Part shown: positions 313 to 60,424 of the stretch, in pieces
How the letters are laid out: every line of letters starts with the position of its first letter
Numbering within the stretch: position 1 is the stretch's first letter
Source of the DNA: Barthelona sp. PCE
Taxonomy: Eukaryota
Assembly (NCBI GenBank): GCA_040285745.1
Contig: JAUFOR010000008.1
Location: 1,488,001-1,552,000 of the forward strand
Length of the DNA stretch: 64,000 nucleotides
Reading direction: 5' to 3'
Notes under the pieces: model-generated
Told to the model about the DNA's origin: nothing
What the model saw: the letters and a program-made list of their open reading frames with translations, nothing else
The model's database searches: none
Made by a program: the position numbers and the translations under genes

Positions 313-3300
313 ATGTTGCATAGTTTGTATATTAAGCTTTTAAATAAGTTCTTAGGGCCGTATTTAAGCGAAGATCTCACCAAAGATCAAGTAGATGTTG
401 CTCTGGGTAGTGGGTATGTTTCGGCTTCGAATATGGACATAAACGTTGATGCCCTAAACAACCTGGGCCTTCCGCTCCTATTCAACAAGGTATCTATCCG
501 TAACCTCACAACCCAGCTTTCTCTACGTAATTTCTGGAAAAGTGGACCTAATATCGTCTTAGATGGTGTAGATATTGACGTAGATTTACTAGATCCTGCC
601 AATAACAAGGAGGAAACAAACAAAGAAGCTTCAGAAGAAGAAATTATCGAGGAGGCAGAGAAAAAAGCTGGCTTCTTTGTTAGAATGCTCGAGGGATTCA
701 TATACCGCCTAAAACTAAACGTATCCAACATCGCTGTCCGTGTTAATACGCGCTTTGGCCCTGTAACATTAAACCTTCAGAGTTTCAGAATCGACGACAA
801 AACAACTGAGTTTGTTGAGAAAGATATTATACTGTCAGGACTTCAGTTACGCCATGAGGCAGGGCTCGACTTTGAATTCGGGTTTAGTGCCAAAGTACAC
901 TACTTTATGGGAGAGGATGATGTTCTGCGACTTGTATGCGAGACTGAAATTGATACAGTTTCTTTAAATATTCAACATGAATTTTTCGCTGTTTTTGAAC
1001 GCATAAAGGGCGTTTTTCTCCCAGACACACGCTTGGGTGACATTGATGAAAGTCTGTTAACATCTGTTATCAACCGCATAGATACCTCGCTCGACACAGA
1101 CTTGTCATCGTTGGAAGAGTCAGTGCATGAGATCAATGCACAGATGCCGCACCGCCTGGCCACTGAGCAGATCGCCATCGTGCTATCAATGAAGCGCATG
1201 AATGTGACAGTGTGCGATGTATGTGTCTCGATAGACAATGCAATGATGGGAGTCTTTACAGGTGAGAGAAACATGTTTGAGTGTGAGCGGATAACGCTTC
1301 CGTTCGTGGAAGTTACCAATGTAGAAATCATGCAGGCAGATAAGATAGCTGTTGAAGTCGGTGATGTATCCATCAGTGTATCTCAACCTGAAGTATACGC
1401 TGTACTCAAGGCACTTGCCCCGTTAGAGCACCTGTACACAATTGATATTGTGGAGCGCGCTCTCACTCGAACGAATACTGACAGCCAGTCATCTGAGTTT
1501 GAAAAATCATCACTGAACGTTGATGTCGCAATTAAAAAGCTCACTATCGAGGCCACCAATGCAGTGGCGAGCCTAAAAATTACAACAGATGTTTTACTGA
1601 AGGACAATAAGATTATTTGTGAAACAGTCTACGGGTTTCTACGCTCAACAGTTTCAACAACTGCACGTATTCTGACTGTGGAGGGGGTTTCCGTTGATCT
1701 AACACAGCGGGCGGTTGCTGTGAGATCAATCGATGTCTCACTGTCAATGCAAGATTTGGGCGGTGTTATTGGTCTGGCAACCCACTTCTTGTACGTTGAC
1801 TTCTGTCCAGTTCATGTGGCCAACGTTGTAAGTTTAGTCACAAAGATATCTCCCCCGACTACACCGACTAAAAGCAACGTTTGTGCTGAAAGCGATGAAG
1901 GTTTTTTTATTGCAACTGGAAGTGTCAAGTGTGAGCTCGTGCTACCACGGTGCAAGGTCGGTGCTGACCTCGATGGTATTACTTTTAGGCAAAAAAAATT
2001 GAATATTGATCACTACCACATTTACCTCGCAGACACAGCTCTCAATCTTGGTGAAATGAGTATAGCATTCCCCAACGTGGCTATAGAGTGCACTGACATG
2101 CCGCATGCCGTAAATGTAACGCTCAGCGACGTTATCAGCGTCAAAATAGCACCAATCTTTGTTCGTGTTCCGTACCTCTATCTCAGCACATATATGCCGG
2201 ACTTTTCATTCAAGGTCCCCGAGTTCGAGCCCCTGTACGTGCCCGATTCGACAACATCTGTCTTTTTATCACTAACTGAGTCAGTCATTTCTCTACAGGG
2301 AGGAAGCAGCATTTTGTTCACACTAAGATCGTTTGAGCTAAATCTTGTACTTAACCCACCGGACGACGGTGTAGCTATGCTCATTGGCGTTATTTTGCCT
2401 AACCTCGCAGTTCATATCAAACCGTTAGGCAAAAATTTGAAACCCTCAGTACATCAGTCCGCGTATGATCACGCACTTGCTCTGGGCTACAGATCGTTTG
2501 CAAACGTGTCAGGCGTCAATGTAATGACTCATATGATGGATGACGGACGCATTGGGGTTTTCACACACGCCCCCAAGCACAATGCCCTAACAGTCTTTGC
2601 AAACGTGTACCCGGATGTCGTTGCACTGCTTGCCGCTTTTGCTGTCCACCGTGAAGACGAGAATAGTGTGGCTCTCGTTGAACAAGACTCTTTCTGTCTT
2701 GCTAATGAAACGGTAATTGACGAGGAACATTTTTACCCCCGATCTCTCGCACCTAGGAGCCAGCCACGCGTCTTCCAGAACAAGGAAACGCAGTTGGAGG
2801 ATGGTATTCTGTTCTCACCCATTGTGATCAACGCTGATCACTTCAATCCAATGCAGGCCCCGACATTGCCCGACAACGCAGTTCTTACCACGTCATTTGA
2901 TGCCGGGTACTTGTCTGTGGTCCTCCATGGTTCAAATTTATTTGGGGAAGATCAATCAAGCGACTCTGTGAGTATTAACATCGCAAACACATCCTTCCAG
3001 GTTCATATATCGGAAGATTCCGATGAGACAACGTTTTTGCTGACTATTGACGATGTAACGCTGTTGGACGGCGTTGGAGACTCGCTGTTCTCGCATGTTC
3101 TGAAGAAATTAGAGACGGGAAAAGACGCTGTACATGCAAAATACCGCCTCTTGAAGGAGGACGCCCAACGGCTATATGTGTCATTGGGTGGCTTTGAAGC
3201 ATGTATCAGTGGTGCGACCATTGGCTTTGTTTCAGGTGCTGTGCTGACAATCATGAGTGAAATTTCCTTGCTCGCTCCCGCCACTTCTTCTACTCCGGAT

Positions 3301-3927
3301 AAAGAGGTGCAGGAAGAGGAGGAGGTCGTTGCAGTTGACGAATCGTTCGTCCAGGCATGCACAGTCGCCCCCTTCAAGCTGAAACTGTCTCTATACCCTG
3401 AGGGTGCTGGCGCCACACTCAAACGATTCGGTCTGGGAAGTATACGCCCTCTTACCATACTGAGCATTACTGACGCGACGCTTGCGTTCCCGGAGTTCCG
3501 CGTTGAGGCAGGCCAAACGTGGACATTCACAGCAGCCGCGCTTCAGGATTTCTTTGTCAGGCAGGTAGCTAGACAATCACCAAGACTTGTGACTGCGCTC
3601 CCATTCCTGCGCTCCTTTGTAGGTCTGTCCGGTGCACTGCTTGGAGTATTTGTTCGTCCTTTTATTAGCGATAATTCATTTTTCGTAGAAATGTACTGTG
3701 CCTTCAATGATCTCTGGAAAACTGCGATTTCTGAGTCCTTGGGGTTGGGTGGGTCCGTGTTGCACTCCGCAAACGTTTTGTTTGACGTCATGGGAGACTT
3801 TATAGGATCAAAATCGAGATCATCAATAAGACGAGTTATATCACATCCTTTCAGATTCCTCAGCAGCGGAACAGCAAACATGCGCCGCTTTCTTCTCGTT
3901 ATGTCGCACAAATCACATAAAAAATAA
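313..3927 (+). CDS. ATG2: ATG2-like bridge-like lipid transfer protein (chorein-N family), 1204 aa
   Basis: Chorein-N start (LLNKFLGPYL...QVDVALGSG...NMDINVDALN), beta-rich repeats, and a C-terminal region (LKLSLYP...LPFLRSFVGLSGALLGVFVRP) resembling the ATG2 C-terminus. Confidence 0.7.
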   Translation: MLHSLYIKLLNKFLGPYLSEDLTKDQVDVALGSGYVSASNMDINVDALNNLGLPLLFNKVSIRNLTTQLSLRNFWKSGPNIVLDGVDIDVDLLDPANNKEETNKEASEEEIIEEAEKKAGFFVRMLEGFIYRLKLNVSNIAVRVNTRFGPVTLNLQSFRIDDKTTEFVEKDIILSGLQLRHEAGLDFEFGFSAKVHYFMGEDDVLRLVCETEIDTVSLNIQHEFFAVFERIKGVFLPDTRLGDIDESLLTSVINRIDTSLDTDLSSLEESVHEINAQMPHRLATEQIAIVLSMKRMNVTVCDVCVSIDNAMMGVFTGERNMFECERITLPFVEVTNVEIMQADKIAVEVGDVSISVSQPEVYAVLKALAPLEHLYTIDIVERALTRTNTDSQSSEFEKSSLNVDVAIKKLTIEATNAVASLKITTDVLLKDNKIICETVYGFLRSTVSTTARILTVEGVSVDLTQRAVAVRSIDVSLSMQDLGGVIGLATHFLYVDFCPVHVANVVSLVTKISPPTTPTKSNVCAESDEGFFIATGSVKCELVLPRCKVGADLDGITFRQKKLNIDHYHIYLADTALNLGEMSIAFPNVAIECTDMPHAVNVTLSDVISVKIAPIFVRVPYLYLSTYMPDFSFKVPEFEPLYVPDSTTSVFLSLTESVISLQGGSSILFTLRSFELNLVLNPPDDGVAMLIGVILPNLAVHIKPLGKNLKPSVHQSAYDHALALGYRSFANVSGVNVMTHMMDDGRIGVFTHAPKHNALTVFANVYPDVVALLAAFAVHREDENSVALVEQDSFCLANETVIDEEHFYPRSLAPRSQPRVFQNKETQLEDGILFSPIVINADHFNPMQAPTLPDNAVLTTSFDAGYLSVVLHGSNLFGEDQSSDSVSINIANTSFQVHISEDSDETTFLLTIDDVTLLDGVGDSLFSHVLKKLETGKDAVHAKYRLLKEDAQRLYVSLGGFEACISGATIGFVSGAVLTIMSEISLLAPATSSTPDKEVQEEEEVVAVDESFVQACTVAPFKLKLSLYPEGAGATLKRFGLGSIRPLTILSITDATLAFPEFRVEAGQTWTFTAAALQDFFVRQVARQSPRLVTALPFLRSFVGLSGALLGVFVRPFISDNSFFVEMYCAFNDLWKTAISESLGLGGSVLHSANVLFDVMGDFIGSKSRSSIRRVISHPFRFLSSGTANMRRFLLVMSHKSHKK

Positions 3928-3941
3928 AAATTTTTTGATCT

Positions 3942-6900
3942 TTACTTTTTGCGGTATTCCCGCACAAGGAGCCTGTTGTAGAATACGAAGCGGTAAAGCG
4001 CGGTATATGCGTACCTGGCCTCGTGTAAAGTCGGAAATTCAATCATTGTTTGTGTATCACCGCGATCTATTACAACCACACAATGATCAATGGTAATACC
4101 ACTAATATCCCACACGCAGAGACGGTCCATGAGCACCATGCGCTGCTCAGTGTTAATCTTGAGCACAAAACATCCCATCAACACGAGACAGGTGGTGTCT
4201 GTCAGACGAATACATGCAACTAGTGGGAGTCCATCAAAGATGCGCTTATTTTCAACCTTCATACGACGAACACTGTGTTGCATGCATGCGAGTCTGTAGT
4301 CCACCGGTGACGTAAAGCTGTCAATTGAGAACACACGAGCAGGCCGAACAACCCCAACAGTATTACTCACAACTGGTTGGTTCTTGAATCCCATGAAGAT
4401 ATTAGATATAGCAAGAGAAATTCCGCCCAAAGGTTTTGTAATAAGCCCCAGTAAACCGTGCCCGATGCCCGCACCCAGACGCTTGTGCCCCTCATCGTGC
4501 TCCATTTGACTCGGCACTTGAACAACCCCAGTAACACCGTAAAAAAATCCGTCTCTAACGGACTTCCATGCCGCTGCGGCACCAGATGCTGAACTGAGCG
4601 GTGGCCGCATGCGCCTGTTGCGCTCCTTTTTGATGATTCGCGAATCCCGACTTCCCTGAACAAGGCCTCTTCCAATGGCACCAAAAAATGAGTGGAATGG
4701 CACACAAACTCCGCGAGCAATCCTTTCCTGGGTTCCCTGTCTCTCTTGTAGTGTTCCTGGAGCTTCACGTATCAAATTCTGAGCGGTTTGATGAAATCTA
4801 GTATTTGATTTCGACTCGTAGTCAATATCAATGGCTCTACGACGACGTTCTGACTTGAACGCGCCTACGGGGTTGCCAAACACCTCCAGAGATCCTACTA
4901 CAGTCCACAGTTGTGCTGCCAATGATACTGAGACGAGTTCCTTAAAATTGCCCAAAAATATGCCCCAATCCTGTACCGACTCTACCACCTCGTACGAGGG
5001 GACGACAAGCGGTGCGCGCTGTACACTGGCGAGGAATACGCTCAGTGCAGATGATACGGAAGATAAAAGAGAGGGTGGTGGAACATCGAAACGCTGAGCT
5101 ACACCAGCGAAATACGCCGCCAGTGCATCTTCCAGGACAAAACGGGACCCAAGAGGGTCCATCTCAAACGTTAGGAAGAGTGTGAAAGCCGAAAGTCCCA
5201 CTTTTTCGAAAAACACCTGAACTTTTTTCTCAGCTTCACTCACGTCACAAACATCCCACACCGCAGCGAACGCATGGTCTGCCTGTAGTACTAGATCGAA
5301 TGGGAGCACGCTTGTGATGTTGTTCATCACGGTCACTATATTGCTTCCGATATTAAGCTGGGAATCCTGCACGTTAACTACCAAGCATTCGAGCCATTCG
5401 GTCACAGGGAGAAAGCGCGTATCTCTCATCATAAAAGCGTGAATATGACAGTGGCTGCGACGGGCACATGCATCAGAGTTGGGGTCGATGAAAGACCAGT
5501 CCGGTTCGTTACAATCGTCAAATGCCGTAGTTGGGTTGACGAATACTGGTGAGAATATGACGGGCCAGGGTGTACCTGGGGTGAGATCGTCGAGTTGAAT
5601 ACGCTCGACGCCAGCTTCCAAAGCGACACGGTTGTCCCTGAGTTCAAAACAACCAAAAACATTGACAACAGAGAACACAAAGACCTCGCTTGGTACCATC
5701 GTGATGACGCATGCCTGGAGAAGAGGTGCACGCATCGCCAAAGTTAATACGTGCTTTCTTCTTGGCCGTGAAGATCGTCGCATATCCCAAAACGACTTAA
5801 CCCCCCGCAGAACCTGCAGTGGCTCTGCTAGCAAACGCTGCTTCTTTTCAACGAAGTCGGTCACCGACACGTACAGATTCTCACCCCTGTGCACTCGTAC
5901 AATCAGCTTAACACCATCATTGAGCTCGAACACCAGATCATTTTTCAGTTCGCTGTAGGACAGTTTGATTGGCGAAACCTCGTATCCGACGGCAGTCAGA
6001 ACAATTATTTCAGGGGTGTCAATGATCCTGTCAAGGCTGTAATACAAGCGATCGCCCTGTTTGATTATGTATGTTGGTGAAGCGTGATAATCTTGACGCA
6101 TACGCAAACATAAACTGCAATTATTCCATATAGAAAAGAGAGGTAAGTTGGTTCGGATGAGGACGCGGATACGCCCGTTAGAATAACTCACATACATTCC
6201 CATGAAACGTGTAGGGTGGGCGCTTATGTGTACCAGCTGCTTGGAAACGAACTTGAGCTCGTGAAATCCGGGTATGCTGAAGTCGAACTCTGCTGTGGGA
6301 CGGTAACCTTCATCAAATGATAATAATGACATTCGTGTGTTTGTGGGTACAACAAGCAGCGGCACCTCCGCACCAGGTTCTACATAGATACAGCTATTGT
6401 AGACGTCGGTGTCCGGGCCACTGAATACAATCATTACGGGTTGTGCTGTTAAGTTACAGAACGAATATCTCTCTGAAACGGTTACAACGCTGAATCCATA
6501 AGTAGGATCCGCACTCACAGACATGGTTACGGAAGCGACAAAAGCGTCACTTTGTTTAATAGCGTGCACCGAGCAAATAGACACATTCAAAACTGATATG
6601 GGATCTGAAAAGTCGCCGACGTGTTTCAAACGAAGCGCTTCCTCCTCATTGTGGATATCTGTTGTCGAAAGTGGGGCAGATTCGAGAAACTCGGTCGTTG
6701 CAAATAATGTGAACGAACTAATTTCAGTCATTGTCTCCCTCACAATCGATCGCGGATCAGCCATTGCGAAAACCAGCTTCAAATCTTTCCCGAGCGTCGA
6801 GCCAGCCACTGCCTCACCTGCTTTGATAAAGAGAGGTGCAACCCTCCCACATCCCTTTAACTGCCGTTTCAACTCCTTTGCAACAATATCGTCACCTATA

Positions 6901-9900
6901 AAGGAGTGTGGTGCTTGAGGGAGCGATGTTCGGGGCACAACATGCTTCTTGGGGAGAGAAATGTGCAACATCAGGGGGAAAGGCAGCATGTTTTCAATGC
7001 TGTAAGACTGTACAAGCGTCACTATATGAGAAGCGTGCACAGCCCTGCGTTCGTCGAACGAAATATCACAATAGCCGCTGTCGATAAACTCTATGTCATC
7101 GTGCGGTGTGTACTCAACATTTACCTGCGTTAGAGGGGCTGTTGGGGACTGAAACAACACTGCAGAGTCGCACTCATCGATGTTCGAAGACCATACACAG
7201 AGAGACGAAGCCTGACGTGGCATATCCGCGATGGAGACACTTGCTAGAACGTCACAAGATGCATCAAAATGGTATATATGAACTGGATCTCCTCCTAAAA
7301 GCATCCTTTCTGAAGGGAGTGGTGATACATCACTTTTTCTACCCTGATAAACAGAAAAAAAAGTTTGAGCTGGAAGCCTTGAGCATACTGAGAGCAGTGG
7401 AGTGATCTCAATTACGGTCTCGGTTATGCCCACGTTGATCTGGATGTTGAGCACACGCATTGCAAATGAGAGATGCGATAAATCAAGCACGTCAATGCTA
7501 CACTGCCCAATTGGAAGCTTTGATCCTGGAGCCTGCACAAACTGCAGTACCGTCGAGTGAATAAACTGGCCCTCTGGCACGTAAACCTCGTCAGCAAGTA
7601 TGTATCTACAGCCGTTGTACTGAATTGGAAAAATGTTGATTATCATTTGACCAGATCCAGCCATGAATCCCACGTTAACGCACTCACCGGCACCGACAGA
7701 GACGACGCTCTTGCGCTCGCCTACCCACTTGACACCTACCCGTAAAGGAAACGCAACGTGGCTTGACACTCTCAGCAACCCACGCACTGCGATGGAAACG
7801 ATGTCAGTCTGGTGAATCTCAACTGCAACGCGGCCTAGAATCTCCCCGCCGTGCAACGGAACCACGTCGGCGTGGTCTTCAGAAAGAGGACGATTAAACA
7901 CTGCTAGTGGGTGCAATTCTTCAACTATATTGAAGTAACTAATGCCGAGGCGTGACAGACGGACGTGTGGTAGAACACCGTCGCAGAAAACAAGCTTCAA
8001 GTAGCAAAACTCGAGATCTACATCGTGTGGAATCGTATCAAGTGCTGAGCCGCCAAAGTGTAACTCGTTCAGGAACAAACACCTATCATCTACTTCACCG
8101 TTCACGTTGCACGTGCGGGATCGGACCTCGTAGTAGACAGAAGAAGATATGCCGTTCGAAAACTCAACAGTGATGTCCCTCGGCACTGTATCCATGAAGA
8201 TGATGCTACTGATGTCCTCCCGTGCTTCTGCAATGCATTTGCCGTGTGCATTGACTAGGGTTGCGCACGAACGCATAAAATAAGCGCTGATGTCGATGAT
8301 GAATGGTGTCTTTAAATGGAAGAGCATTCGTATCTTCCTAATTGCAGAAAACCTCTCCAGCAGCGCGTCTGCACGCTTGATGAAGTCGATGAATGCGCCG
8401 GAGTCCAGGTCTACACGAGCAGAATCCAAAGTAAACATGGACTGCTCCAGCTCCGACGGAAGATCCAACTTTGTAGCTTTGAATATGTCATTGGTACTGA
8501 TAGGGTCGCTGGGCTGGCTGCAGAACGAAAGCGATGCGCCCACTGGCTCCAGGAGCAGCACTGTATCAGAATATGACACGGGAACTACACTAGCTGAAAT
8601 GCTGAGATCTAACGTCAAAAACTGCGCATTGCGGAACTTGATGAGATCGGCCAATGCTCCCATTACCTGCACCGAGAACAAAGTCTGCGCTGTTCCGGAG
8701 GATATTATACCAAAATCTAAAGATATGTCGCCAAACGTTAGCACATATCGGATCTGGTTGGATCTGAGCAGCTCGCTTGCCCGGCGGGCTGCGCCTGGGT
8801 AGTACGACTGGATGATGTCTCCTACCGTGGGTTGCGTGACAACCCTAACAAAATAGGCTTGTGCCAGTCGCAGTCGATCATAACCGGTTTCGTAGAACCT
8901 ATCAACGGCAAGATGTGTAAGCGAAGCGGCCATTTGAACGAGCGACACGCTACAGACGACGCGCCGAAGTGCACCTGCTAACAAAACAGCATCATTGATG
9001 AATATGGATATTTCTGTGTTTGAAACATCAAAGAATGTGTTCCAAATGACATTAGGTGTGTCAGTTAGTGCGTGAAAATCGTCGATGGCCTCCTGTAAGG
9101 AGTGGTCATTGATTTCCGGTGTCTCCGTGAATTCACACTCGCTGAGGGAAGATGCAGTATCATTGTCAATTTCCAGCAGTTCTATATCGCTAACCGATAG
9201 TTCGACAGGGTCAGGAGTGGGTGGTACAAAACCAGAACGGTACTCCGGTGTCATGCGGATATGGACAGACGAAGGACGTACGATATGCCTCTGCTGTGAT
9301 GTGGGAAATGTGATGGCGCCTCTAAAAGCAGACGGTACCGTTATAAATACTGATAACGAGACATCAGCGGAAATTGTGGGTTCTCGTAGGAGAAAAGAGT
9401 GTAGCCTGCCTGAAACGTCACACATGAGACAAAATACTGCACCCTTTCCATCACAATAATCGCCTAATGCCGTGGAAATCGCTACTCCGACGTTGGTGAC
9501 AGAGCACGCAATATCAAGAGCAATTTTTGCATCCACAAGTGCGTTGAGAATTGTTGACGAGGGCTCAATATCGTTAATGGCAGCAGTCAGCGGGTTTGCA
9601 GCCGTGGAGTCGTTCAAAAACAAAAGCGTACCAACCAAATTGATGAGTCGGATAACGGCAGATGAATCAAATAAAAAAAAAAAATCGCTTAGCTTGCTCC
9701 TGACGCGATACGACTGCATGTCCCCATGTTGTCGTGTGCACTTGACTGAAAACATAGGGGTGCCAACTAACAGCTCGCATTTTTCATCGAAAACATCAGT
9801 CACGAATGATATGTCTTCAACACATGCATTGACCTGTGTCATTCCGTGGAAGAACAAAACATCGCCCTGTAACCGGAAAGAAATGGTGCCCATATGAGCA

Positions 9901-12900
9901 TTGTCGTGAAACTCAATCAAGAATTCCCCCTTTTGCCGAATTAAAAACTGTGGACAGCTCTTTAAAGGTGGGTAGAGTGGGTAAAGCGTCTGCTTCGGCG
10001 TTGAAAACGAGAGAAGTCCTCTCTGCAGTGCCTTAAGCGAGATGTATCGGTGCGCTGCGAGAGCTGCCGACAGGTATGCCACGAGACAGTGTGTCACCAC
10101 GAGGTTCATACTGATATCAGCATCAAGCTCGTTGCGGCCACCTCTACCATCCACAGTGGCCAACAGATGACCAGAAACTAAAAGACTTAATTTGAGCAAA
10201 ACTTGATGATTAACAAAGCCCTCCAGCTTCGTTATACTCAATTCAACGCTCTTTTTGGTCGGCTTTCCGCTCATTAGTGCCTTGAGAAGCTGGATTCGAT
10301 AAGTAGCAATAGCTGTACAGCCACATAGTGTAATAAGTTCGTCAACAACCTCAACATAACTCACCGTCATAACAACACTGTTAATCCCATCATATGACAG
10401 AGGCTCTGTGGGGTAATCGACAGCTGAGTATCGCTGCCCCGATATGTAGCCCAAGAATGAGGCAGGAAAAAGTCGACCAGGTAATGCATATAACAACGGA
10501 CATGTTACAACACGCATATTCTGTATTCTTGCAGTCAGTGCTGAATGATGCAACTTCAGATAGAAAGATGCTGTGGTGGAAAAATCATCTTCATTTTCTT
10601 CCAATGAAGATGAGAGCCGTATAATACTTCTTCCGCTTGAGTTCTTCACCGTTAGATCCTGTACTGATGCGCAAAGCATGGAGTTGGGGTCTTGGCAGGA
10701 TTTCTCCACAGAGAGTTGGCTGATCCCAGCGTGCATGGAGGCTGTGTGGCCCATTTCGTCCCAATCGCTGCTCAACTCCTCAGGCAATACCAGCCCAGTA
10801 CTCAAGACCTGTAGGTCAAAACGCAATGAGCCCTCTGATTGCCTTTCGACAATGACTGGTGGAAGGAAAGAAAACCAGCAGGGTGGTAGAGCGTAGAGTA
10901 TGTAATGGCATAACAATGAGTATAGCTTTTCTAAATCGGCCAAGATATCGACGCAGGACATAAACATGCCAACTGTCGTTGTTCTATGTCCGTTTGCAGC
11001 ACCCAGACGAACTCGCAGGACAAATGAAGAGTCAGGTCTATTTTCAAGACACCACTGTGAAAACAGGGGCATATCAGTGTGCGAGATGGTTGTTTCAAAC
11101 TGTTGAAGAGGATCAATGCGCTCTCCGTCGATGATAATACTGTCTCGGTTTGAAACTGTTATCAATGGGGCGGTCCTTTGTTGGTTGATGCACTGAATCT
11201 TTCTCTGTTTATCCCTGTTCTTGAGTATAAACTTCATGTTCGAAACAACGTCACGAAACGAGAACCTGTGACTTACCGCGCCTCTCTGAACAGTGAGAGA
11301 TCGGAAAAAGGTTTCAAAAATGGTGGTGACTGGCTTAAAAACAAGAAACATCGACCAAAACGCAACACGGAGCATGAAGTCCGCGTTTGGTGCGGATAAA
11401 TGATCGAGAGATGGGGCTGAGCAGAGGCAAATGTCCATACGCTGCACGTCGATAGCCAGCCTGAAAAGCTCCAATTTTGATATTCTATCAATGAAACTGA
11501 CTGACAGTTGATCAACAAACGCTGCTATTCCCTTCTTAAGCACTATTTCAGAAGCTGATTCGGGTTCGAAACCTACGATATCAGAAATCGTGCTCAGAAG
11601 AAGGCGGAGCGAGTTTGATGTGCACCTGATATCGACGTGGTGCGATGCAAGGAAAAGAACAGCTTTTGATACTGAATTTGGTGGAAAGAGAACACTAAAA
11701 GTAAACTGAGACGGACACATCAAAACATGAGACGGTTCCTCCAGCCCGACTTCCACCGAGCCGATGTCTCCCTGCAGACCCTCGGGATGCTGCCTGACGA
11801 AAATCGAACCAACCTCTGCTAGAAAAACTCCACCCTTGACTTCGAGTCGAGCATCTATTTGGTTGATTCGAGCAGCCACGGTGAAACGCGGTGACGGGGT
11901 CGGAACGCCCTTGAATGAGGTTGTGTTGCTTAGAGCAAGCAAAGAAGTCTTGAAATCCCATAAAGGATCGAAGGTTGTATCCCCTACGCATTCCGAAATC
12001 ATAGATATGAGAAATGCAACATTCTTGTCTGACACGCGCAACGAAAGGTCTCCGATGCGCACTGATAACGTTGCGTTTCTGTTAACCGAACTGTAAATCA
12101 CATTCAGAAAGTCAGTGCTCTCGACAACATTATTCACAAACAATTTGGGAACGGACGAGACTGCATTGATACTCATGCCGTTGAGCGATGCTTTTGCAGA
12201 CACAAGAGGCACGACAAGAGACAGTGAACCTGTTGATCCCAGTAAAGAAAACGAAACGTTGGTGACCCTAAACGACATGCGAAAAAGAAAATTTTTCACC
12301 ATTTCGGGTACCCTCTCTATGCCGAAACGCCGTAAAAACAACGACGACCCCCACTGCTTAACCGCTATTAATGGTTTTAGAAACAGTTTTCCAATATTAC
12401 CGTACAGAACACGACCATGGGCGCTACTCAGCTCCCCACTTTCCATCTTACGACGCGCAATCATCCTGAAAACAATGAGCTGCTCTACGGGAGTATTCTT
12501 CTCAATGAGTTGTAGCAACCGCCGCCTTGATCCCGTCATCTTGTTATACTCACACCCGGATGCCACAAAGTTGGCGTACAGTACCCCGTACACACGCCTT
12601 ACCTGTGCGTTCTTCGAAAGTGACAAATTCCAAAGGTTCCGTTTCCGAGTGACAATAAGGTGCACCGCGTTAAACGCATACTTCAACCAAGCACGACGGT
12701 CTTCTAAAACTGGCACAGTGGGGCGTAGATGGATGAAACGACGTATCCTAACAATCCTTGACATCTTCTCCCTGAATGCAGAAAAAAAAGTAATCAACTT
12801 TGTTGGACATTCGAAACTCGCCCCAGACGCCTCAAGCTCAATATCAAAAGAGGGGATAGTATCAATATAACCAAAATAAATGCGTACAAAACCTTGCAGC

Positions 12901-13634
12901 ACAAAGTCGCTACAAACTTTGAAATTGTTAAAAACAAATGATGATAGATGGATTGTAAGCTTCTTCGTCACAAATTCATCTACAAACGCATCATATAGTG
13001 CACGATCTGCTGCGCTTTCATCAAGAGACTCCATTAATATACTGTATACTCGCTCAAAGCACTCATCGATACTTGACAGGGTACCCTGCTCATCTGTGGT
13101 ACCCAACGATATCTCATCAATGGTTATACGAAACGTACTGTTTCCATCTTGGAATTCCAGCGAAATATCCCTAAAAAGGACCTCACAGTTTCTCAAAATC
13201 GCGTCCTTGAGGTTCTTCGCTGTGTAGTTAAGCTTTTCCGCCTCTTTAGGATCCTTCAGCGCATTTGCAAGCTCATATTTGCTCAAGATGCCTGCTTTCA
13301 AAACATCAGCATCTATGTGACTAGCCTTACGCACTGACTCCCACACCTCCTCAATCGGTGGAACAGACGCATTTAAAGTAATGCCCGAGACCTGAATTAG
13401 CGTCCGCTTCTCCAAAAGGTTTTCCCACGGTATATGCATTAGTACATTTTCTACAGTACCGTCTGATATGCGCAGGAAGGGTATGATCTCCTGGAAGAAC
13501 ACTGGATCGAGGTTAAGTTGAGTCAACTCCACGATTCCAGCCAGAAGCTGAACACTAATGAGGTCAATATCAAAATCGGAGAAAAAAGGACCAATAAGTG
13601 AGCCCACTACTCTTTTTGCAACAATGGATAGTAT
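3942..13634 (-). CDS. VPS13: VPS13 family lipid transfer protein, ~3230 aa; proposed non-AUG (ATA) start at 13634
   Basis: Chorein-N (LIGPFFSDFD...IPWENL, WLKYAF), VAB-like repeats, VGSLEVFGNPVG, ATG_C-like GVTGVVQVP...GIGHGLLGLITKPLGG and a PH-like tail. The frame is open upstream of the track's GTG start up to a TAA, with no ATG in between. Confidence 0.9.
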   Translation of the reverse strand: MLSIVAKRVVGSLIGPFFSDFDIDLISVQLLAGIVELTQLNLDPVFFQEIIPFLRISDGTVENVLMHIPWENLLEKRTLIQVSGITLNASVPPIEEVWESVRKASHIDADVLKAGILSKYELANALKDPKEAEKLNYTAKNLKDAILRNCEVLFRDISLEFQDGNSTFRITIDEISLGTTDEQGTLSSIDECFERVYSILMESLDESAADRALYDAFVDEFVTKKLTIHLSSFVFNNFKVCSDFVLQGFVRIYFGYIDTIPSFDIELEASGASFECPTKLITFFSAFREKMSRIVRIRRFIHLRPTVPVLEDRRAWLKYAFNAVHLIVTRKRNLWNLSLSKNAQVRRVYGVLYANFVASGCEYNKMTGSRRRLLQLIEKNTPVEQLIVFRMIARRKMESGELSSAHGRVLYGNIGKLFLKPLIAVKQWGSSLFLRRFGIERVPEMVKNFLFRMSFRVTNVSFSLLGSTGSLSLVVPLVSAKASLNGMSINAVSSVPKLFVNNVVESTDFLNVIYSSVNRNATLSVRIGDLSLRVSDKNVAFLISMISECVGDTTFDPLWDFKTSLLALSNTTSFKGVPTPSPRFTVAARINQIDARLEVKGGVFLAEVGSIFVRQHPEGLQGDIGSVEVGLEEPSHVLMCPSQFTFSVLFPPNSVSKAVLFLASHHVDIRCTSNSLRLLLSTISDIVGFEPESASEIVLKKGIAAFVDQLSVSFIDRISKLELFRLAIDVQRMDICLCSAPSLDHLSAPNADFMLRVAFWSMFLVFKPVTTIFETFFRSLTVQRGAVSHRFSFRDVVSNMKFILKNRDKQRKIQCINQQRTAPLITVSNRDSIIIDGERIDPLQQFETTISHTDMPLFSQWCLENRPDSSFVLRVRLGAANGHRTTTVGMFMSCVDILADLEKLYSLLCHYILYALPPCWFSFLPPVIVERQSEGSLRFDLQVLSTGLVLPEELSSDWDEMGHTASMHAGISQLSVEKSCQDPNSMLCASVQDLTVKNSSGRSIIRLSSSLEENEDDFSTTASFYLKLHHSALTARIQNMRVVTCPLLYALPGRLFPASFLGYISGQRYSAVDYPTEPLSYDGINSVVMTVSYVEVVDELITLCGCTAIATYRIQLLKALMSGKPTKKSVELSITKLEGFVNHQVLLKLSLLVSGHLLATVDGRGGRNELDADISMNLVVTHCLVAYLSAALAAHRYISLKALQRGLLSFSTPKQTLYPLYPPLKSCPQFLIRQKGEFLIEFHDNAHMGTISFRLQGDVLFFHGMTQVNACVEDISFVTDVFDEKCELLVGTPMFSVKCTRQHGDMQSYRVRSKLSDFFFLFDSSAVIRLINLVGTLLFLNDSTAANPLTAAINDIEPSSTILNALVDAKIALDIACSVTNVGVAISTALGDYCDGKGAVFCLMCDVSGRLHSFLLREPTISADVSLSVFITVPSAFRGAITFPTSQQRHIVRPSSVHIRMTPEYRSGFVPPTPDPVELSVSDIELLEIDNDTASSLSECEFTETPEINDHSLQEAIDDFHALTDTPNVIWNTFFDVSNTEISIFINDAVLLAGALRRVVCSVSLVQMAASLTHLAVDRFYETGYDRLRLAQAYFVRVVTQPTVGDIIQSYYPGAARRASELLRSNQIRYVLTFGDISLDFGIISSGTAQTLFSVQVMGALADLIKFRNAQFLTLDLSISASVVPVSYSDTVLLLEPVGASLSFCSQPSDPISTNDIFKATKLDLPSELEQSMFTLDSARVDLDSGAFIDFIKRADALLERFSAIRKIRMLFHLKTPFIIDISAYFMRSCATLVNAHGKCIAEAREDISSIIFMDTVPRDITVEFSNGISSSVYYEVRSRTCNVNGEVDDRCLFLNELHFGGSALDTIPHDVDLEFCYLKLVFCDGVLPHVRLSRLGISYFNIVEELHPLAVFNRPLSEDHADVVPLHGGEILGRVAVEIHQTDIVSIAVRGLLRVSSHVAFPLRVGVKWVGERKSVVSVGAGECVNVGFMAGSGQMIINIFPIQYNGCRYILADEVYVPEGQFIHSTVLQFVQAPGSKLPIGQCSIDVLDLSHLSFAMRVLNIQINVGITETVIEITPLLSVCSRLPAQTFFSVYQGRKSDVSPLPSERMLLGGDPVHIYHFDASCDVLASVSIADMPRQASSLCVWSSNIDECDSAVLFQSPTAPLTQVNVEYTPHDDIEFIDSGYCDISFDERRAVHASHIVTLVQSYSIENMLPFPLMLHISLPKKHVVPRTSLPQAPHSFIGDDIVAKELKRQLKGCGRVAPLFIKAGEAVAGSTLGKDLKLVFAMADPRSIVRETMTEISSFTLFATTEFLESAPLSTTDIHNEEEALRLKHVGDFSDPISVLNVSICSVHAIKQSDAFVASVTMSVSADPTYGFSVVTVSERYSFCNLTAQPVMIVFSGPDTDVYNSCIYVEPGAEVPLLVVPTNTRMSLLSFDEGYRPTAEFDFSIPGFHELKFVSKQLVHISAHPTRFMGMYVSYSNGRIRVLIRTNLPLFSIWNNCSLCLRMRQDYHASPTYIIKQGDRLYYSLDRIIDTPEIIVLTAVGYEVSPIKLSYSELKNDLVFELNDGVKLIVRVHRGENLYVSVTDFVEKKQRLLAEPLQVLRGVKSFWDMRRSSRPRRKHVLTLAMRAPLLQACVITMVPSEVFVFSVVNVFGCFELRDNRVALEAGVERIQLDDLTPGTPWPVIFSPVFVNPTTAFDDCNEPDWSFIDPNSDACARRSHCHIHAFMMRDTRFLPVTEWLECLVVNVQDSQLNIGSNIVTVMNNITSVLPFDLVLQADHAFAAVWDVCDVSEAEKKVQVFFEKVGLSAFTLFLTFEMDPLGSRFVLEDALAAYFAGVAQRFDVPPPSLLSSVSSALSVFLASVQRAPLVVPSYEVVESVQDWGIFLGNFKELVSVSLAAQLWTVVGSLEVFGNPVGAFKSERRRRAIDIDYESKSNTRFHQTAQNLIREAPGTLQERQGTQERIARGVCVPFHSFFGAIGRGLVQGSRDSRIIKKERNRRMRPPLSSASGAAAAWKSVRDGFFYGVTGVVQVPSQMEHDEGHKRLGAGIGHGLLGLITKPLGGISLAISNIFMGFKNQPVVSNTVGVVRPARVFSIDSFTSPVDYRLACMQHSVRRMKVENKRIFDGLPLVACIRLTDTTCLVLMGCFVLKINTEQRMVLMDRLCVWDISGITIDHCVVVIDRGDTQTMIEFPTLHEARYAYTALYRFVFYNRLLVREYRKK

Positions 13635-13938
13635 GTTAAGTAATTTTAAGAAAAAAGAAGAGACAAAAGTGAATTACAGTTCCACTGCGTTTGTATTTCA
13701 AATATAAGTAGGTTCTACCGCTGTTCGCTTACATTTTATGCTCTCTGTTTAGTAATAAAATCATTCTAACAGCACTTAATACAGACCTGCTACTTGTTCA
13801 TTCATATTATGATTGAAAATCACATATTAGACTTACATTCTGTTGTAAAACTTTTACTTTAGCCATCATAGACCTTAAAACTAATCCCTTCCACTGCATA
13901 CATAAAAACCTCCCTTTTCCTTCAATAGACAGTTTAAA

Positions 13939-15000
13939 GTGCAATTAAAGACGCTTAGTCTACCTTTCAAGGGGGCATCTACCCGGGACTTGGTTAAAAT
14001 TGGCTTTATTGTGCCGCATGGCAGTCGCTTTGAGAGTGCTCTCGATAGAGGCAAAACACACTTTGTTGAACACCTGTTGATGCGCGGAACCAACACTTTC
14101 CCAGCAGAAAACGTTATCAAAAATGCAGCAGAACTCGGTTTTAAGTTTGACGCACAAACTGGGCGAGAATTCAGTGTTTACCATATGTCCTGTCTACCTA
14201 ATGCACGTGAATATGCTAAATCTGTACTATTGGATATGATAGAGACACCTTCATTTGATCATGATAGGGTTGAGCGAGAAAAAAAAATTGTCTTTGAAGA
14301 AGCTTCACTCATTGATTCTATACCTCGGGAAAAGGTATTTCAGCAATTACACGCCGCCGCCTATGGACCCAGGGGGTTGGGAAATACAATATTAGGGACC
14401 GATAACGTAGATTCATTTACAACATCCGATCTGAATTCTTTCTTCGAACAACACTTTAAAAATGCATATTTTTTTGATTCCACGTGTTCTACTGCTGAAT
14501 TTGATACCATAGATCTCCCTTCTGATCCCAACAGCATGTTAAAAACGGGATATACGCACTTTGAAACAGAGCACACAGATGGAAGAGATCGCTTTGGAAT
14601 TTTATTTGAGACTGCTAGTAAGGATGAGGCCCACCAGTTTACGTGGCACTTGGACCAGCAGCTTAAGCATCTTAGGTCTGATAACTTTGAAAACGTAACT
14701 GGATTCATGTTGCAATACAGTGATCGTTGCGTTTTTGGATTAATGGGTATTCTAAAACGTGATAACTGTGATTTGAATGAGATATTGAACGTTGTTAAGA
14801 GCAACTATGAAGATTTTAGAAACGATAAATCTAATTCCTTGAATTTGGAAACTTTGGAAGCAATCAATTCAAACACACTTTATTTAATTGAAAAAGCTCT
14901 CTCAACTCCTCATATAGACGCACACATATACTCTACTGTTCAAGAAAGTCTATACAACCCATGTATTATCACGAGTGGAAAAAAAAGTATCTGGTATTAA
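13939..15000 (+). CDS. M16B zinc metallopeptidase (mitochondrial processing peptidase beta-like); start uncertain
   Basis: GSRFE...GKTHFVEHLLMRGT (inverted HxxEH zinc motif), FDAQTGRE, EREKKIVFEE (third ligand), LGNTILG. The first in-frame ATG lies after HxxEH. Confidence 0.85.
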   Translation: MQLKTLSLPFKGASTRDLVKIGFIVPHGSRFESALDRGKTHFVEHLLMRGTNTFPAENVIKNAAELGFKFDAQTGREFSVYHMSCLPNAREYAKSVLLDMIETPSFDHDRVEREKKIVFEEASLIDSIPREKVFQQLHAAAYGPRGLGNTILGTDNVDSFTTSDLNSFFEQHFKNAYFFDSTCSTAEFDTIDLPSDPNSMLKTGYTHFETEHTDGRDRFGILFETASKDEAHQFTWHLDQQLKHLRSDNFENVTGFMLQYSDRCVFGLMGILKRDNCDLNEILNVVKSNYEDFRNDKSNSLNLETLEAINSNTLYLIEKALSTPHIDAHIYSTVQESLYNPCIITSGKKSIWY

Positions 15001-17897: not shown

Positions 17898-17934
17898 ATA
17901 CCTGTTCTTATTATACCTTTGTTTTTTCTTTTCT

Positions 17935-21130: not shown

Positions 21131-21150
21131 AATATTTTCTTTTCTTTTCA

Positions 21151-21828: not shown

Positions 21829-22115
21829 TTTTCCATTCACTTTTTGTAAACTGACTTTTCGACTTGAGAGCAGATAGCATCACTTGAATGTGGACAAATA
21901 TCAATTTAACACTCTAAAATAGTGTGTCAAAGCAAACAATGTGATCCTGCTCAATAAAAATTGTTCTAGTCAAGCCGCACTGTTAGTATCTCACACTAAT
22001 TTGTGCTATAATCAATAATAAGCGTGTTTTTGTTAAAATAAAGTTGATAATTCACTATCAAAAAATGTTATCACATTTTTCACTCCTTCCTTTTTATTGC
22101 ATTTTTATAGCATAT

Positions 22116-29626: not shown

Positions 29627-30151
29627 TATAACTGTTTGAAAAGGAGAGAAAAATTTAAACAAGCGAAACCCTCAAAATATAGTTTACATGAATAGTTATG
29701 CGTGATGCAATGTGCTATAGACCTCAAAAGAGCAATTAATACATGTTTGAGTTATAAACAACCTCAATACACAATTCCATGCTTTATTTTCACAACAGAT
29801 AAGAATAACGTTCTACAATGAGGCCTTTTTTTGAAAAAAGGCACGCCTTCAACAAAATTTTCTGAGTAGACCAAGCAATAAGGAAGCAGAATAAAAAAAA
29901 ACCGAGGAAACACCATAACTTACATTTAATTATTGTAATTTCACCTGAAAAACTAATTTTATGCATAGAAAAGTGCAAAATAATTTACAATCCTCAAAAA
30001 GTTATGCAGGTTCCAACACCTGAACTAACATTCTCTATAATATGAATTACAAGGAGTGATACGTCTTTAACTGTGGTATGATGAAGTTTGTTCACATATT
30101 TTGCACTTTGAAGAACCTGTTCTGCAAACATAACCTTTTTCAACTTCTACA

Positions 30152-32788: not shown

Positions 32789-32861
32789 GCGCCTATAGCT
32801 CAGTTGGCAGAGCGTATGACTGAAGATCATAAGGTCCTAAGTTCAATTCTTGGTGGGCGCA
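32789..32861 (+). tRNA. tRNA-Phe (GAA)
   Basis: Cloverleaf: acceptor GCGCCTA/TGGGCGC, D arm GCTC..GAGC, anticodon stem TATGA/TCATA with loop CTGAAGA, T arm CTAAG-TTCAATT-CTTGG. No encoded CCA, no intron. Confidence 0.97.
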
Positions 32862-32866
32862 CCTCC

Positions 32867-40222: not shown

Positions 40223-43200
40223 TTACAATTGTGTTTCTTGGTCATTCAACAGAGGTTGAATGAGATTAGGTTCTTCGATCTGTGGTGAGGCATCGTTATT
40301 ACTGGTAGTGTTATCATGGTTAACACCACTATTGGGTGTGGGATCATCTATTGCGACGAATTTAACGGTAAGTGGTACTACACGTTTTTTGTTGCTGAAG
40401 AAGTACTTATTTTCAGTAAATTTAACAATATCAAACTCAGTGATATGCTCCAGCTGATCCTTGAAACGGGACTTTATATCACTGGAGTCTTTGGCAGCAT
40501 AGTGAACAATAATATATGCTTCACAGTATTCTTCATAAGCCAATTGTCGCTGAAGTGCATTGATACCATATATGTCATAGTTCTGAACCGAATCACGTTC
40601 TTGGTTGAAGAAACCCTTCCTCTTCGGCTTTTTGTTAACAAAATTGCGGTACGATGAGTATCGTACTTCTCCAGAACCAGTAAGAGTATTCTCGCTGTCG
40701 TTTTTTTTGAAAGGCCAGCTCCACGGACCTAATATGTTAAGAAATGGATACTGCCATATTTTGCGCTTTGTTACCATGATTTTTTTCACCTTTCTGAAAA
40801 CGGAACTAGTATCATCACTGCATATTTTGTATTCAATCCAGTTGAAGAAGTGTTTGTGGCCATCCTCACGATATATACGGTAATGATTTTGGTAATCAGT
40901 CACGCAATAGTTATCATCCAACTTAAATTGCACTAAAACATTCGGTGAACAATTGGTGTTGTTGTCATTCGGTGAGCGATTGGTGTTGTTGTCATTCGGT
41001 GAGCGATTGGGGTTTTCTTGATATTTACGATTCAAAAAAGATGACAGAAAAATAGTTGTTATTCCAATCGAACAAGTAAATATTAATATTAAACTTTTTC
41101 CACTTATCTTTTTTATATCGAATTCATCAAATAAGTAACACATTGCAGCGATACCAATAAAGTTGATAGATTCAAGGAACAAATCAATAGCTTTAGCAAC
41201 GTAGAAGCCGATGTATGAGACAATGATATATCCTTGAATAGCATTCAAGTATTTTGTCCAATCTGTTAACATTCCGAACAAGCAGAACTGAAACCAAAAT
41301 ATCAAGAATGACACTTTTCTCGAAAATATTGATACAACAAAGCATAAAATAAGACATGCTGAATGGAGCATCATTTTATCAAAGAAATTGTAATTCGCAA
41401 TAAAAATTGCAAGAAAAACAATAGTAATGGCTATTACATAAATTTTCCGTTTATCTTTAAATATTTCTAGTAAAAATGGCATGGCCGCTGAAAGAACAAT
41501 AGAAATAATAAAAAATGCCTTGCAATAACCTGAGTTGAGAAATTCATCACTTCTGTACACTTCATAATCAAAAAGTAATGCAAAATAACCTAATATACTC
41601 AAAAATGTTAGGCAAAAGAATATTGTATACGAAATTGTGATGCAGCCAAAGTGGTTAACCTTCTCAATATTTTTTTTCCAATTCTCATCAAAGGCCAAAG
41701 CGCTTGTGTTTAATGCAATATAATCAATTTTCTTTTTCTTTTCATTACTCACATCATTAATACTGCTTTTCACATTATCAACGTGATCAACATGGCAGTC
41801 AGAATAAACATAAAGCGCCTTTTGGTCTTCAGGAACCTGCTCAAAGTACTTAAGGTAGATGGTTCCAAATTTATGGAACTTTTCAAACAAATTAATTCTT
41901 TTTTCCGGCTCCAATTTTGACACATACTCACAAAGCAAAGCTCCTTCATCACCCAAATCATCCAAATTGGTCTCTGTGATGTAGCCAACACATTCTTTGA
42001 ATAAATCCTCTTTTTCCTCGTTTAAGATCGAATTAAGGGGATTGTGATACAGAGACATGAGGCGCCAAATTTTCTTTTTATCGATACCTTCATACTTAAG
42101 AATCTCAATAATACGGCTATGTTCTAGGTTAGCAAAGCTAAGCGGCTTGATAAATTTTTGGTGGGTCACTAAGATTTCCTTTTCAACAAACTCCATAACA
42201 GAAAAAACTTCACTGAACATGTTCCACAGATCTTTCTGTTCTTCGGTCATCAAAACTTTGAATATCAACTTGAACTGTTCTTGGTTAAGCATTCTTACGT
42301 CTGATATGCGAATATATTCAATGTAATCAACTTTGTTCAATTGCTCCTCAGGATTCAAATCATCGATGAAAAGAGATACCAATGGTTTTGGTAGTAGTTC
42401 TCAAGCTCGTTTTTTGTTGTTCTGAGTGAGCTTTAATATTTTGTTTTGTTGATCAAGACTGAGTGCTGCAAAATCTGAAGCATCCATAAGTGAAAAGAAT
42501 AAATTAAAAGCTTTAGGTTTGGTTATCAAGACGCTCATATACCCATTAAAACTTCTTGAAAACTTCCAAAACCTCTTCAAATTAACGTCATCAAATGGTA
42601 ACTCATCAAACTCAACAGACATTAACTTCCAAAACGTAAGATCATCCAATCCACGGAAGTTCAGTTCTGTGAAATACTGAAAATATTTTTCAATAATTTG
42701 CTTACCAAACAATCTTTCAAAAAGCATGGTAATTGGATTCTGATGTACCGAAATACATTTCCAAATATTTTTTAGGTCCTCACGTTGAGCAATTAGTAGC
42801 ATACATATTAAATTTTCATGTGAAATTGAGTGGTAATCTGATTTGGTAAATGCAAACAGATATTCCTGCAACCTTTCACCGTTATCTAAAACTTTGAAGT
42901 ATTCAACTGGATCAAGTTTTTGAGCAACAATGCGCCACAGTCTTTTACGCTTCTCCTCAGTACAATCTTTCATTTCAATAAATATTCTTCCAAGGTGGGG
43001 TTCAACAGCTGTCGTAATATGATTTGACTGAATGTATTGAATGAAGTGTGGAACAACCCAAAAATAATCTTTAACACACCACAGACTTAAAACATCTCTA
43101 ATTCGACTCCATCTTTTAAAAAACACATGTTTCACAGAATCAGGACAGTCACAAAGAGCTTCTTCCAATAAATTTATGTCAAAAGAAAAGAAATAATCCA

Positions 43201-43636
43201 CTTCATTTCTCAAAATGTCATCAGATCCGAGAGTACTAGAAAGAAGAATGAAAAATTTTTCAATTTCCCAACGTTTTCCAATACAATGGATTATATGACA
43301 TGCTCCTACAATATTCAAAGAAATGCCTCCAGGTAATAAAATTCTACCAGTTGCTCGATTATTCGAAGTCCACATATTTCTAATTGGCTCATGATTTTCA
43401 CTGAACTTCCTGCAAATGAATTTTGCAAAATCTGTGAACTTATCAGAGCTTCCGCGATATAAAATATCAATATTATTGATAAATCCTATGGTTGAATTAT
43501 CTTCGAAGACAAAAACATTTCTTCTACGAACAATCCCTATATAGTTAACTCCTGCTTCAATCTTATCATGGAATGCTCCATGGATTCTTTCATAATCTGC
43601 TCTAATAGCTTCATTATTATTATTACCTCTGTCCAT
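40223..43636 (-). pseudogene. ~1137-codon gene (helical repeats followed by a multi-TM region) interrupted by one in-frame TGA at 42403-42401; pseudogene or readthrough
   Basis: The two track ORFs are in the same frame and 18 nt apart: NKKRA*ELLPKPLVSLF. The downstream ORF has no ATG near its start. Confidence 0.7.
40939..41010 (-). repeat. Coding 27-bp tandem repeat (about 2.7 copies)
   Basis: Encodes NRSPNDNNT-NRSPNDNNT-NCSPN. Confidence 0.9.
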
Positions 43637-44577
43637 AAAGAAAAGAGTAAAGTAATGAAAAAGAATTCAAGATAATCAATAATAACTTTTGATAGCACCA
43701 TATTTAAACAATTTCAAGACGAATTTCAATAATAAAAATAACGTAAAGTCACCAAAAAAAGAGATTCAAAAAAGAAACTCAAAATCTATAATATACCATA
43801 AACACACATCATAAACCCGCCCAATATACACAAAAAATGCCCGATAGCAGTGAAACTAACACAATATTCCCTTCAACAAGAAATAATCCAATATACAATT
43901 ATCAGCTTCATAAAACGGTTTTATCCTCGCTTTAGAATAACACCCAACGATATAAGCACTTCCAGGAGCTCATTAGGATTGATATAAATCTCATTTAGGA
44001 AAGTTTCGCTTTTTTTTCGCTTCTGTTGATGGATTATTTAAGCAAATGACATCCAAAACTGTACAATCACAGTTTTTTATTAGTTTCAAGGGATACATTC
44101 CACATAATGCAAGTGTTTGAGCATTTAAAAAAAAATCCTATAAGATTGAGTTAATTTCACGATTTAGTACGTAAAGATAATGATACAGGCACAAATCAGC
44201 ATCAGTGGCGAGCTGTAGTTTTTTGAAAAATTTCTTAAATACCATTCTAAGCAATCATTGCCATTCTAAGAGATATTTCAACATTGAAAATGTATTTAAC
44301 TATAATTAAAAGCAGAAAACAAAGATAGCAAAGAATAGTGACAAGGCAGGTTTTTGCAGATGCATAATTTAGATAAATTTTCAGTGATATTTCGCGAAAT
44401 ACTGATGAATATCACCTTTAAAGCAACATTTTAAAGTATTAACGGGAGATTTGATAAATTTCGAGGATTGTATTTCTATGCCTGTGCAAGCATAACAGGA
44501 TTCCTTACAGCGGCATATATAGGCAAACGATAGACTTCAGCTTAAGGAATGAACCCATACAGTGACAGGCTTGGAAA

Positions 44578-60248: not shown

Positions 60249-60424
60249 ATTTAGGTTAGAGAAGGAGAAAAACTATATATCGAGTATGCTAAACTTTTGA
60301 GAATGTTCCCACCATACATCAGGCGCAAATATTAGGGAATCGTACCTACATGAAACATTGTGAAGGCAATTGAGTGCTGTACCTTGGTTTTCCATTTTTT
60401 ACCATTTCAACCAACTTATACACA

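Follow-up and report, generated by a model that had tools for sequence, protein, structure and literature searches.

The start of a VPS13-like gene was analysed in a stretch of 64,000 nucleotides (nt) from the genome of Barthelona sp. PCE (GenBank assembly GCA_040285745.1, contig JAUFOR010000008.1, positions 1,488,001 to 1,552,000 of the forward strand). The whole stretch is referred to as the window, and all positions are counted from its first letter. According to the article text of the genome paper, Barthelona sp. PCE is a free-living, anaerobic metamonad with a highly reduced genome of 10.2 Mb and a GC content of 40.3% (PMC11316075). The same text describes an assembly of nanopore (R9.5) reads with Illumina polishing, resulting in a k-mer completeness of ~98% once polished, and gene calling with GeneMark-ET, AUGUSTUS and PASA in a pipeline that was trained on RNA-seq data and checked with PASA (PMC11316075). 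In the literature, covered as article text with supplements aside, nothing was found in print on the start codons or introns of this genome.

The window is very compact: open reading frames (ORFs) of the standard code tile the 64 kb, with spacers of tens of bases. Deposited NCBI proteins were identical to the first-ATG ORFs in 27 of 30 cases looked up. No sign of introns was seen in the other genes of the window (~35-36 genes), and no verified intron was found from which a splice consensus could be defined. The sole RNA gene detected in the window with ARAGORN and Rfam was a tRNA-Phe (GAA) at 32789-32863 (+); the Rfam scan revealed no small nuclear RNA for splice-site pairing. GTATGT was rejected as an intron marker for the window, since it is not enriched (39 copies on both strands versus ~31 expected). 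The translation of the VPS13-like gene was 100% identical to the database entry 'hypothetical protein PCE1_003502 [Barthelona sp. PCE]'. The features around its start are the following.

3942-13673, minus strand: VPS13-like frame from stop to stop, 3243 codons (3230 from the ATA to the stop), 9.7 kb, no internal stop
13674-13676, minus strand: in-frame TAA that closes the frame upstream, read from the sequence
13632-13634, minus strand: ATA, candidate near-cognate start, homologous to Met1 of the family (sequence and comparison with homologues)
13607-13631, minus strand: LSIVAKRV, encoded by codons 2-9, plus the first base of codon 10; coding under an ATA start, intronic in the NCBI model
13648-13669, minus strand: pyrimidine tract of 22 nt including one G, start-type context, its end 14-15 nt upstream of the ATA
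13437-13439, minus strand: first in-frame ATG, codon 66 from the ATA (ORF listing)
13447-13734, minus strand: span between the ATGs at 13734-13732 and 13447-13445, enclosing 284 nt around the ATA that are free of ATG in every frame
13787-13805, minus strand: exon 1 of the NCBI model, ATG plus 16 nt (19 nt, MNEQVA-), from the deposited protein
13607-13786, minus strand: intron of the NCBI model, 180 nt, donor AG/GTCTGT, ACTTAAC 29 nt before a TAG acceptor

Read along the minus strand, the TAA at 13676-13674 is followed by 13 codons (FTFVSSFFLKLLN), the ATA at 13634-13632 and then LSIVAKRVVGSLIGPFFSDFD, and the frame stays open to 3942. A first-pass annotation made from the letters of the window had described a TAA upstream, no ATG until about 65 codons into the chorein domain, and an intact ORF of 9.7 kb. 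This description holds, since the first in-frame ATG is codon 66 (13439) and the frame 13673-3942 is free of stops; 78 codons past the upstream stop are without an in-frame ATG. Among the 14 codons from the TAA to codon 2, the ATA is the only one-base variant of ATG. It has an A at -3 and a C at +4, and the window's own ATG starts exhibit no strong preference at these positions. An alternative code in which TAA encodes Gln was rejected, as readthrough would meet a TGA eight codons further up with no ATG, and standard-code ORFs tile the window. A misassembled or invertible segment was also rejected; neither inverted repeats nor other repeats were found at the locus.

Homologues of the N-terminus were collected with phmmer using residues 1-350 against 1.84 billion representatives, resulting in 59 matches, one of which was the organism's own protein. 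The closest non-self match had 29-31% identity across the N-terminus. In 45 of the 58 non-self matches the best stretch started at query residues 3-9, and the match began at the same residue number within one position in 41 of them (exactly the same number in 25). The homologues share an N-terminal helix motif with a conserved glycine, located at residue 15 in 24 sequences and at residue 16 in 13; counted from the ATA, the glycine of the Barthelona sequence is at 15. The first-pass annotation had aligned the ATA with Met1 of a yeast Vps13 sequence and had reported matches at G15, F21 and D22. The colinearity was borne out on database homologues in place of the yeast sequence, and the three residues were recovered in homologues as well, for example in P0003.

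A hidden Markov model (HMM) was constructed from 51 of the 59 homologue N-termini, the remaining 8 being dropped as non-colinear or fragmentary. Scores were 70.3 bits for the ATA-started sequence, 66.0 for the N-terminus of the NCBI protein, 65.7 when the sequence began at codon 10 and 17.4 when it began at Met66. Family homology gained from codons 1-9 was 4.6 bits, versus 0.3 bits from the annotated exon. The alignment opened at profile position 3, which corresponds to residue 3 of the ATA-started sequence. With a gap-free position-specific scoring matrix (PSSM), LSIVAKRV ranked in the top 3.7% of the window's 88985 stop-free 8-mers. An AlphaFold model computed from an alignment of 24 sequences had a mean predicted local distance difference test (pLDDT) score of 72.7 and placed residues 2-17 in one helix (pLDDT 87-91), a result that is biased by the alignment supplied to the model.

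Family membership was assessed by several searches. The top solved structure in Foldseek was the Vps13 N-terminal fragment 6cbc (E 7e-15, probability 1.00), followed by Atg2 (6a9e) and LPD-3 (9cap). Pfam VPS13_N was matched with an E-value of 5e-15 and 54.8 bits, below the cut-off of 80 bits, and no other Pfam family was detected even at E <= 10, including the middle and C-terminal VAB, VPS13_C and ATG_C modules. For the C-terminal 900 amino acids, the nearest named ESM Atlas clusters carry VPS13_VAB and VPS13_C (score 0.96, 215 of 256 features common), with these two domains on 20-55% of the members in the top three clusters; this is a lead only. Among proteins of near length, a search found the organism's own protein and a single distant VPS13, and no others. 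The label 'VPS13-like' is fair, though the Pfam score is sub-threshold, because of the homologue N-termini, the fold match to 6cbc and the C-terminal ESM Atlas clusters. A second chorein-N protein of 1204 amino acids is encoded at 313-3927 (+) with an ordinary ATG start. It matches Pfam VPS13_N and ATG2_CAD, both below cut-off, with profile position 1 at residue 1, and its gene converges tail to tail on the VPS13-like gene, with 14 nt from stop to stop.

The sequence context of the ATA was compared with that of 31 first-ATG starts of the window. At least 12 pyrimidines in 14 nt were present within 45 nt upstream of 21 of the 31 starts and of 12% of 20000 random positions, which agrees with the earlier statement that a pyrimidine tract of this kind precedes the ATG of other genes. 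The tract of the ATA has 14 pyrimidines in 14 nt and ends 15 nt upstream, a configuration matched by 0.7% of random positions. TTTTC was found upstream of 19 of the 31 starts, and TTAAC, present in 8 of 31, is enriched about threefold upstream of ordinary starts. Outside ORFs there are 16 strong tracts, and in at least 9 cases a start codon or the ATA follows within 25 nt. An upstream composition model was trained on the 31 starts, with leave-one-out scoring for the true starts. The ATA reached 9.5 bits, higher than all 31 true starts and reached by 0.04% of 2421 other ATGs, which makes its upstream region the most start-like of the window by this model. The annotated ATG at 13805 scored 2.0 bits (median of true starts 2.3), a value which 8% of the null set also reach. 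Of 1195 inter-ATG gaps, only 0.67% reach the length of the 284-nt stretch without ATG, and among 16185 coding windows of 187 nt, 518 (3.2%) lack an ATG. Such a stretch would suit a weak start that scanning ribosomes leak past.

In general, a T-rich, G-depleted pyrimidine tract lies 0-30 nt above most start codons of the window, often followed by an A-rich spacer and sometimes by TTAAC. Examples are located at 17916-17934 (+), 21133-21149 (+), 29638-29654 (-), 43637-43652 (-) and 60258-60273 (-). The tract is a candidate core-promoter or leader element of Barthelona sp. PCE and not a splice acceptor. Spliced-leader trans-splicing at the tracts was rejected, as several of them abut the ATG without an intervening AG (for example at 17935, 21151 and 43636).

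The reading tentatively preferred here, with a probability somewhat short of even, is that the VPS13-like protein is translated colinearly from the ATA frame. The mRNA would begin at or just past the tract at 13669-13648, as those of most genes in this compact genome seem to. The initiator tRNA would pair with the near-cognate AUA at 13634-13632, which would serve as initiator, and the protein would begin Met-Leu-Ser-Ile-Val with the first chorein lipid-transfer helix complete. The 19-nt exon and the intron of the public model would then be a device of the gene finder to supply an ATG. From the near-cognate initiation proposed in the first-pass annotation, the colinearity with Met1, the homology of codons 3-9, the start-type context and the intact ORF stood; initiation at the ATA itself we only infer.

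Several points weigh against this reading. As a near-cognate initiator AUA ranks with the weaker ones, housekeeping genes rarely depend on a non-AUG start alone, and a priori an intron is likelier than a sole start of this kind. There is a C at +4, and no stable downstream hairpin was found below the ATA (z = +1.16). The gain of 4.6 bits in the HMM is small, with a PSSM p-value of 0.037, and the measures of homology, context and ATG-free length were all picked after the locus had been seen. The tract could instead be that of an intron or the relic of an older promoter. The public model with its 7/8 donor, TTAAC and TAG acceptor offers an ordinary alternative, and the annotation pipeline used RNA-seq, according to the article text (PMC11316075). 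On the other side, the lack of other evident introns in the window counts against the splice prior.

Orthologous DNA was sought in one metagenome scan, which resulted in two loci, both weak bacterial false matches. Locus L001 was rejected as high-GC bacterial DNA with one shared peptide word inside a malic-enzyme-like ORF; locus L002 was the same weak match. No shorter or transcript-derived protein fragments were found among proteins of 30-1775 amino acids.

The divergently oriented gene that lies head to head with the VPS13-like gene encodes an M16 peptidase and also lacks an ATG above its zinc motif. The features in question are the following.

13906-15000, plus strand: frame of the M16 (MPP-beta-like) peptidase, no ATG above the HFVEH zinc motif, annotated from the internal ATG at 14080
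13939-13941, plus strand: GTG, the earliest strong near-cognate codon in the M16 frame, located 15-16 nt past a 15-nt pyrimidine tract (13909-13923)
13624-13636, plus strand: ATGGATA followed by GTATGT, candidate mini-exon and donor of the M16 gene, antisense to VPS13 codons 1-4

The first in-frame ATG of the M16 frame is codon 59 (14080), at which the deposited protein of 306 amino acids starts. The HFVEH zinc motif is intact and located upstream of this ATG, so it is absent from the deposited model. Inclusion of the upstream frame raised the Pfam Peptidase_M16 score from 59 to 92.5 bits, and the alignments with solved MPP-beta and bacterial processing proteases begin at residue 25-30 of the M16 ORF, on residues 19-29 of those proteases. 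For this gene, 57 intron models are possible, none of them clean; the best donor, ATGGATA/GTATGT (13624-13636), is in frame solely with the third and poorest AG. The T of this donor GT, at 13632 (+), pairs with the third base of the VPS13-like ATA. An ATG in the VPS13-like gene would turn the GT into GC, and therefore a VPS13 ATG and an M16 GT donor cannot coexist. An out-of-frame ATG opens a 20-codon frame at 14018-14082 (+) that ends in a TGA overlapping the M16 start as annotated (TGATG), an arrangement in which ribosomes could terminate and then reinitiate. MPP/PreP homologues were identified only in Skoliomonas species, according to the article text of the genome paper (PMC11316075); Barthelona sp. 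PCE encodes an MPP-beta-like M16 peptidase whose HFVEH motif is intact.

That two genes among ~36 are without an ATG and adjacent head to head suggests a common cause, either a tolerance of near-cognate starts or 5' exons interleaved in each other's introns. An inversion that swapped the starts of both genes was rejected because codons 1-22 of the VPS13-like frame are colinear with the family. The prior for non-AUG initiation is raised because the M16 neighbour is ATG-less too, repeats the order of tract and near-cognate codon (GTG) and has no good intron model.

Removal of an intron as in the public model is a quite possible explanation, which likewise does not reach an even chance. Transcription would proceed from above 13805, a 19-nt exon would provide the ATG and five and a third codons, and the intron 13786-13607 would be removed. 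The deposited protein (P0002) starts MNEQVAVGSLIG and is identical throughout to the product translated from 13805-13787 spliced to 13606-3945. The GT-AG borders restore the frame from the ATG of the model, and the 180-nt intron takes out the ATA and codons 2-9. If this is correct, the family-like codons 1-9 would be due to chance or would be left over from an earlier start whose ATG mutated to ATA. The upstream exon with an ATG which the first-pass annotation had named as its counter-case is just what the NCBI model proposes. The earlier argument that no acceptor is available was correct as far as the sequence between the tract and the ATA is concerned, in which no AG lies. It was incomplete because only sequence upstream of the ATA had been considered; three AGs that follow the ATA at a distance of 21-27 nt (G at 13612, 13610 and 13607) were overlooked, and the last of these, 13607, is the NCBI acceptor.

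The donor of the model, AG/GTCTGT, is better than expected by chance. It agrees with the generic consensus AG/GTATGT, which may not be the species' own, at 7 of 8 positions, and only 147 of 3418 random anchors (4.3%) have, within 250 nt, a donor of this quality in phase with an ATG and its open frame. ACTTAAC lies 29 nt ahead of the TAG acceptor, and the 2.0 bits of the annotated ATG are typical of true starts. Initiation at AUG is the default and needs no special pleading, and the training on RNA-seq and the PASA check described in the article text favour the model further (PMC11316075).

Against the model stands the homology: exon 1 contributes 0.3 bits and the stretch it replaces 4.6, the resulting N-terminus is three residues below the modal family length, and the conserved glycine is at 12 and not at 15. 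The sequence removed is in frame and open for 22 codons. The pyrimidine tract is on the wrong side, upstream of the branch-like site and not between it and the AG, and TTAAC itself belongs to the motifs enriched before ordinary starts. No other intron is evident among the ~35 genes of the window, in keeping with the agreement between first-ATG ORFs and annotated proteins. At the VPS13-like locus, 75 in-frame models with an ATG and GT-AG borders are combinatorially possible, so that the existence of one such model proves little; gene-calling software that insists on an ATG will always be able to assemble one. The same pipeline cut the M16 neighbour at an internal ATG with loss of the zinc motif, and thus its start calls are not reliable at this locus. 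The 5' coverage of a poly-A-selected mRNA of 9.7 kb was probably poor. Taken together, the ATA start and the spliced ATG appear close to even, and sequence alone cannot decide between them; each leans on one or two signals at p ~0.04, all picked post hoc.

A start further downstream, at ATT codon 4, GTG codon 10 or AUG codon 66, or an incipient decay of the gene after a very recent loss of the start, is improbable. The GTG at codon 10 (13607-13605) has a G at -3 and a G at +4. A GUG with a purine at -3 and a G at +4 is usually a better near-cognate start than AUA. The ATG-free stretch would let scanning ribosomes get to the ATG at 13439, and decay would suit a genome described in the article text as highly reduced (PMC11316075). 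A start at Met66, however, retains only 17.4 of the 70.3 bits of the N-terminal profile, and an out-of-frame ATG-TAC-TAA is located 8 nt ahead of the ATG at 13439. Codons 3-9 still score as homologous, and a frame of 9.7 kb without a single stop argues for continued selection and against decay.

An error of assembly or polishing, or a strain polymorphism, at the A of 13632, with ATG as the true codon, is very improbable. In its favour, the codons are one base apart and the assembly is nanopore-based (R9.5, Illumina-polished). Against it, the 9.7-kb frame has none of the frameshifts that are the commoner nanopore error, and the M16 neighbour would require a second, different substitution in its own start. 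In addition, k-mer completeness was ~98% after polishing according to the article text (PMC11316075), and neither repeats nor inverted repeats that might mislead the assembler are present at the locus.

Some further observations were made on the gene annotation of the window. Three first-ATG ORFs, at 22065, 50513 and 62261, are without a deposited counterpart. The first of them (22065, plus strand, 1456 amino acids) has a strong pyrimidine tract at 22076-22095, between its ATG and a second ATG at 22116 (+), and the position of the tract suggests the second ATG as the real start. The other two ORFs missing from the deposited protein set are located at 50513-51208 (+) and 61842-62261 (-). The stretches upstream of them are 50333-50512 (+) and 62261-62430 (-). 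That of the former contains a GTATGT and a pyrimidine-rich TAG, and no in-frame intron model was found. At 40223-43666 (-), two deposited genes of 411 and 689 amino acids share one frame and are separated by a single TGA at 42401-42403, after which 36 more open codons precede the downstream ATG.

A wider proposal, which is itself rather unlikely, is that near-cognate codons are the only starts of at least two conserved head-to-head genes, the VPS13-like gene with ATA and the M16 gene with GTG, each after a pyrimidine tract and with a very short leader. In a sharper variant, the M16 gene may possess a 7-nt mini-exon with an ATG (13624-13630), and the donor overlapping the VPS13-like start may have forced the change of that start codon; the overlap is a candidate only. 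If the ATA and GTG starts were true, start-codon stringency would be relaxed in the smallest known free-living eukaryotic genome. As sole starts, the ATA and its neighbour's GTG would imply a start fidelity looser than the textbook one in a deep-branching, compact eukaryote. Gene finders that require an ATG would then systematically mis-start or truncate genes in such genomes, a cost exemplified by the M16 neighbour, the public model of which is without its catalytic zinc motif. With a real intron, nothing about the locus would be unusual except that the intron happens to encode a family-like N-terminus.

Compared with VPS13 and other bridge-like lipid-transfer proteins with a chorein-N domain, the Barthelona protein is alike in the chorein fold at the extreme N-terminus and in the length of ~3200 amino acids. 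Its domain starts at residue 1, as in 41 of the 58 homologues. In contrast to VPS13 proteins, the Barthelona gene is very divergent and has no ATG at the position of Met1.

The public model resembles the 5' mini-exon and intron of intron-poor protists and yeasts in its 19-nt ATG exon, GT-AG borders, donor of the GTNTGT type and TTAAC. It differs from them in that the sequence removed resembles the N-terminus of the family and carries the strongest start-type context of the window.

Genes known to start at non-AUG codons include mammalian EIF4G2 (GUG) and, for their N-terminal extensions, yeast GRS1 and ALA1. Non-AUG initiation and 5' mini-exons are known already, and the novelty would at most be AUA as the sole start of a conserved protein of 3230 amino acids. 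The Barthelona gene shares with EIF4G2, GRS1 and ALA1 a conserved coding region above the first AUG, a one-base variant of AUG and a purine at -3. Unlike in these genes, the codon would be the rare and weak AUA, without G at +4 or a downstream hairpin, and the case is known from sequence alone. Whereas GRS1 and ALA1 employ such codons for extension isoforms, the functional VPS13-like protein would have no start other than AUA.

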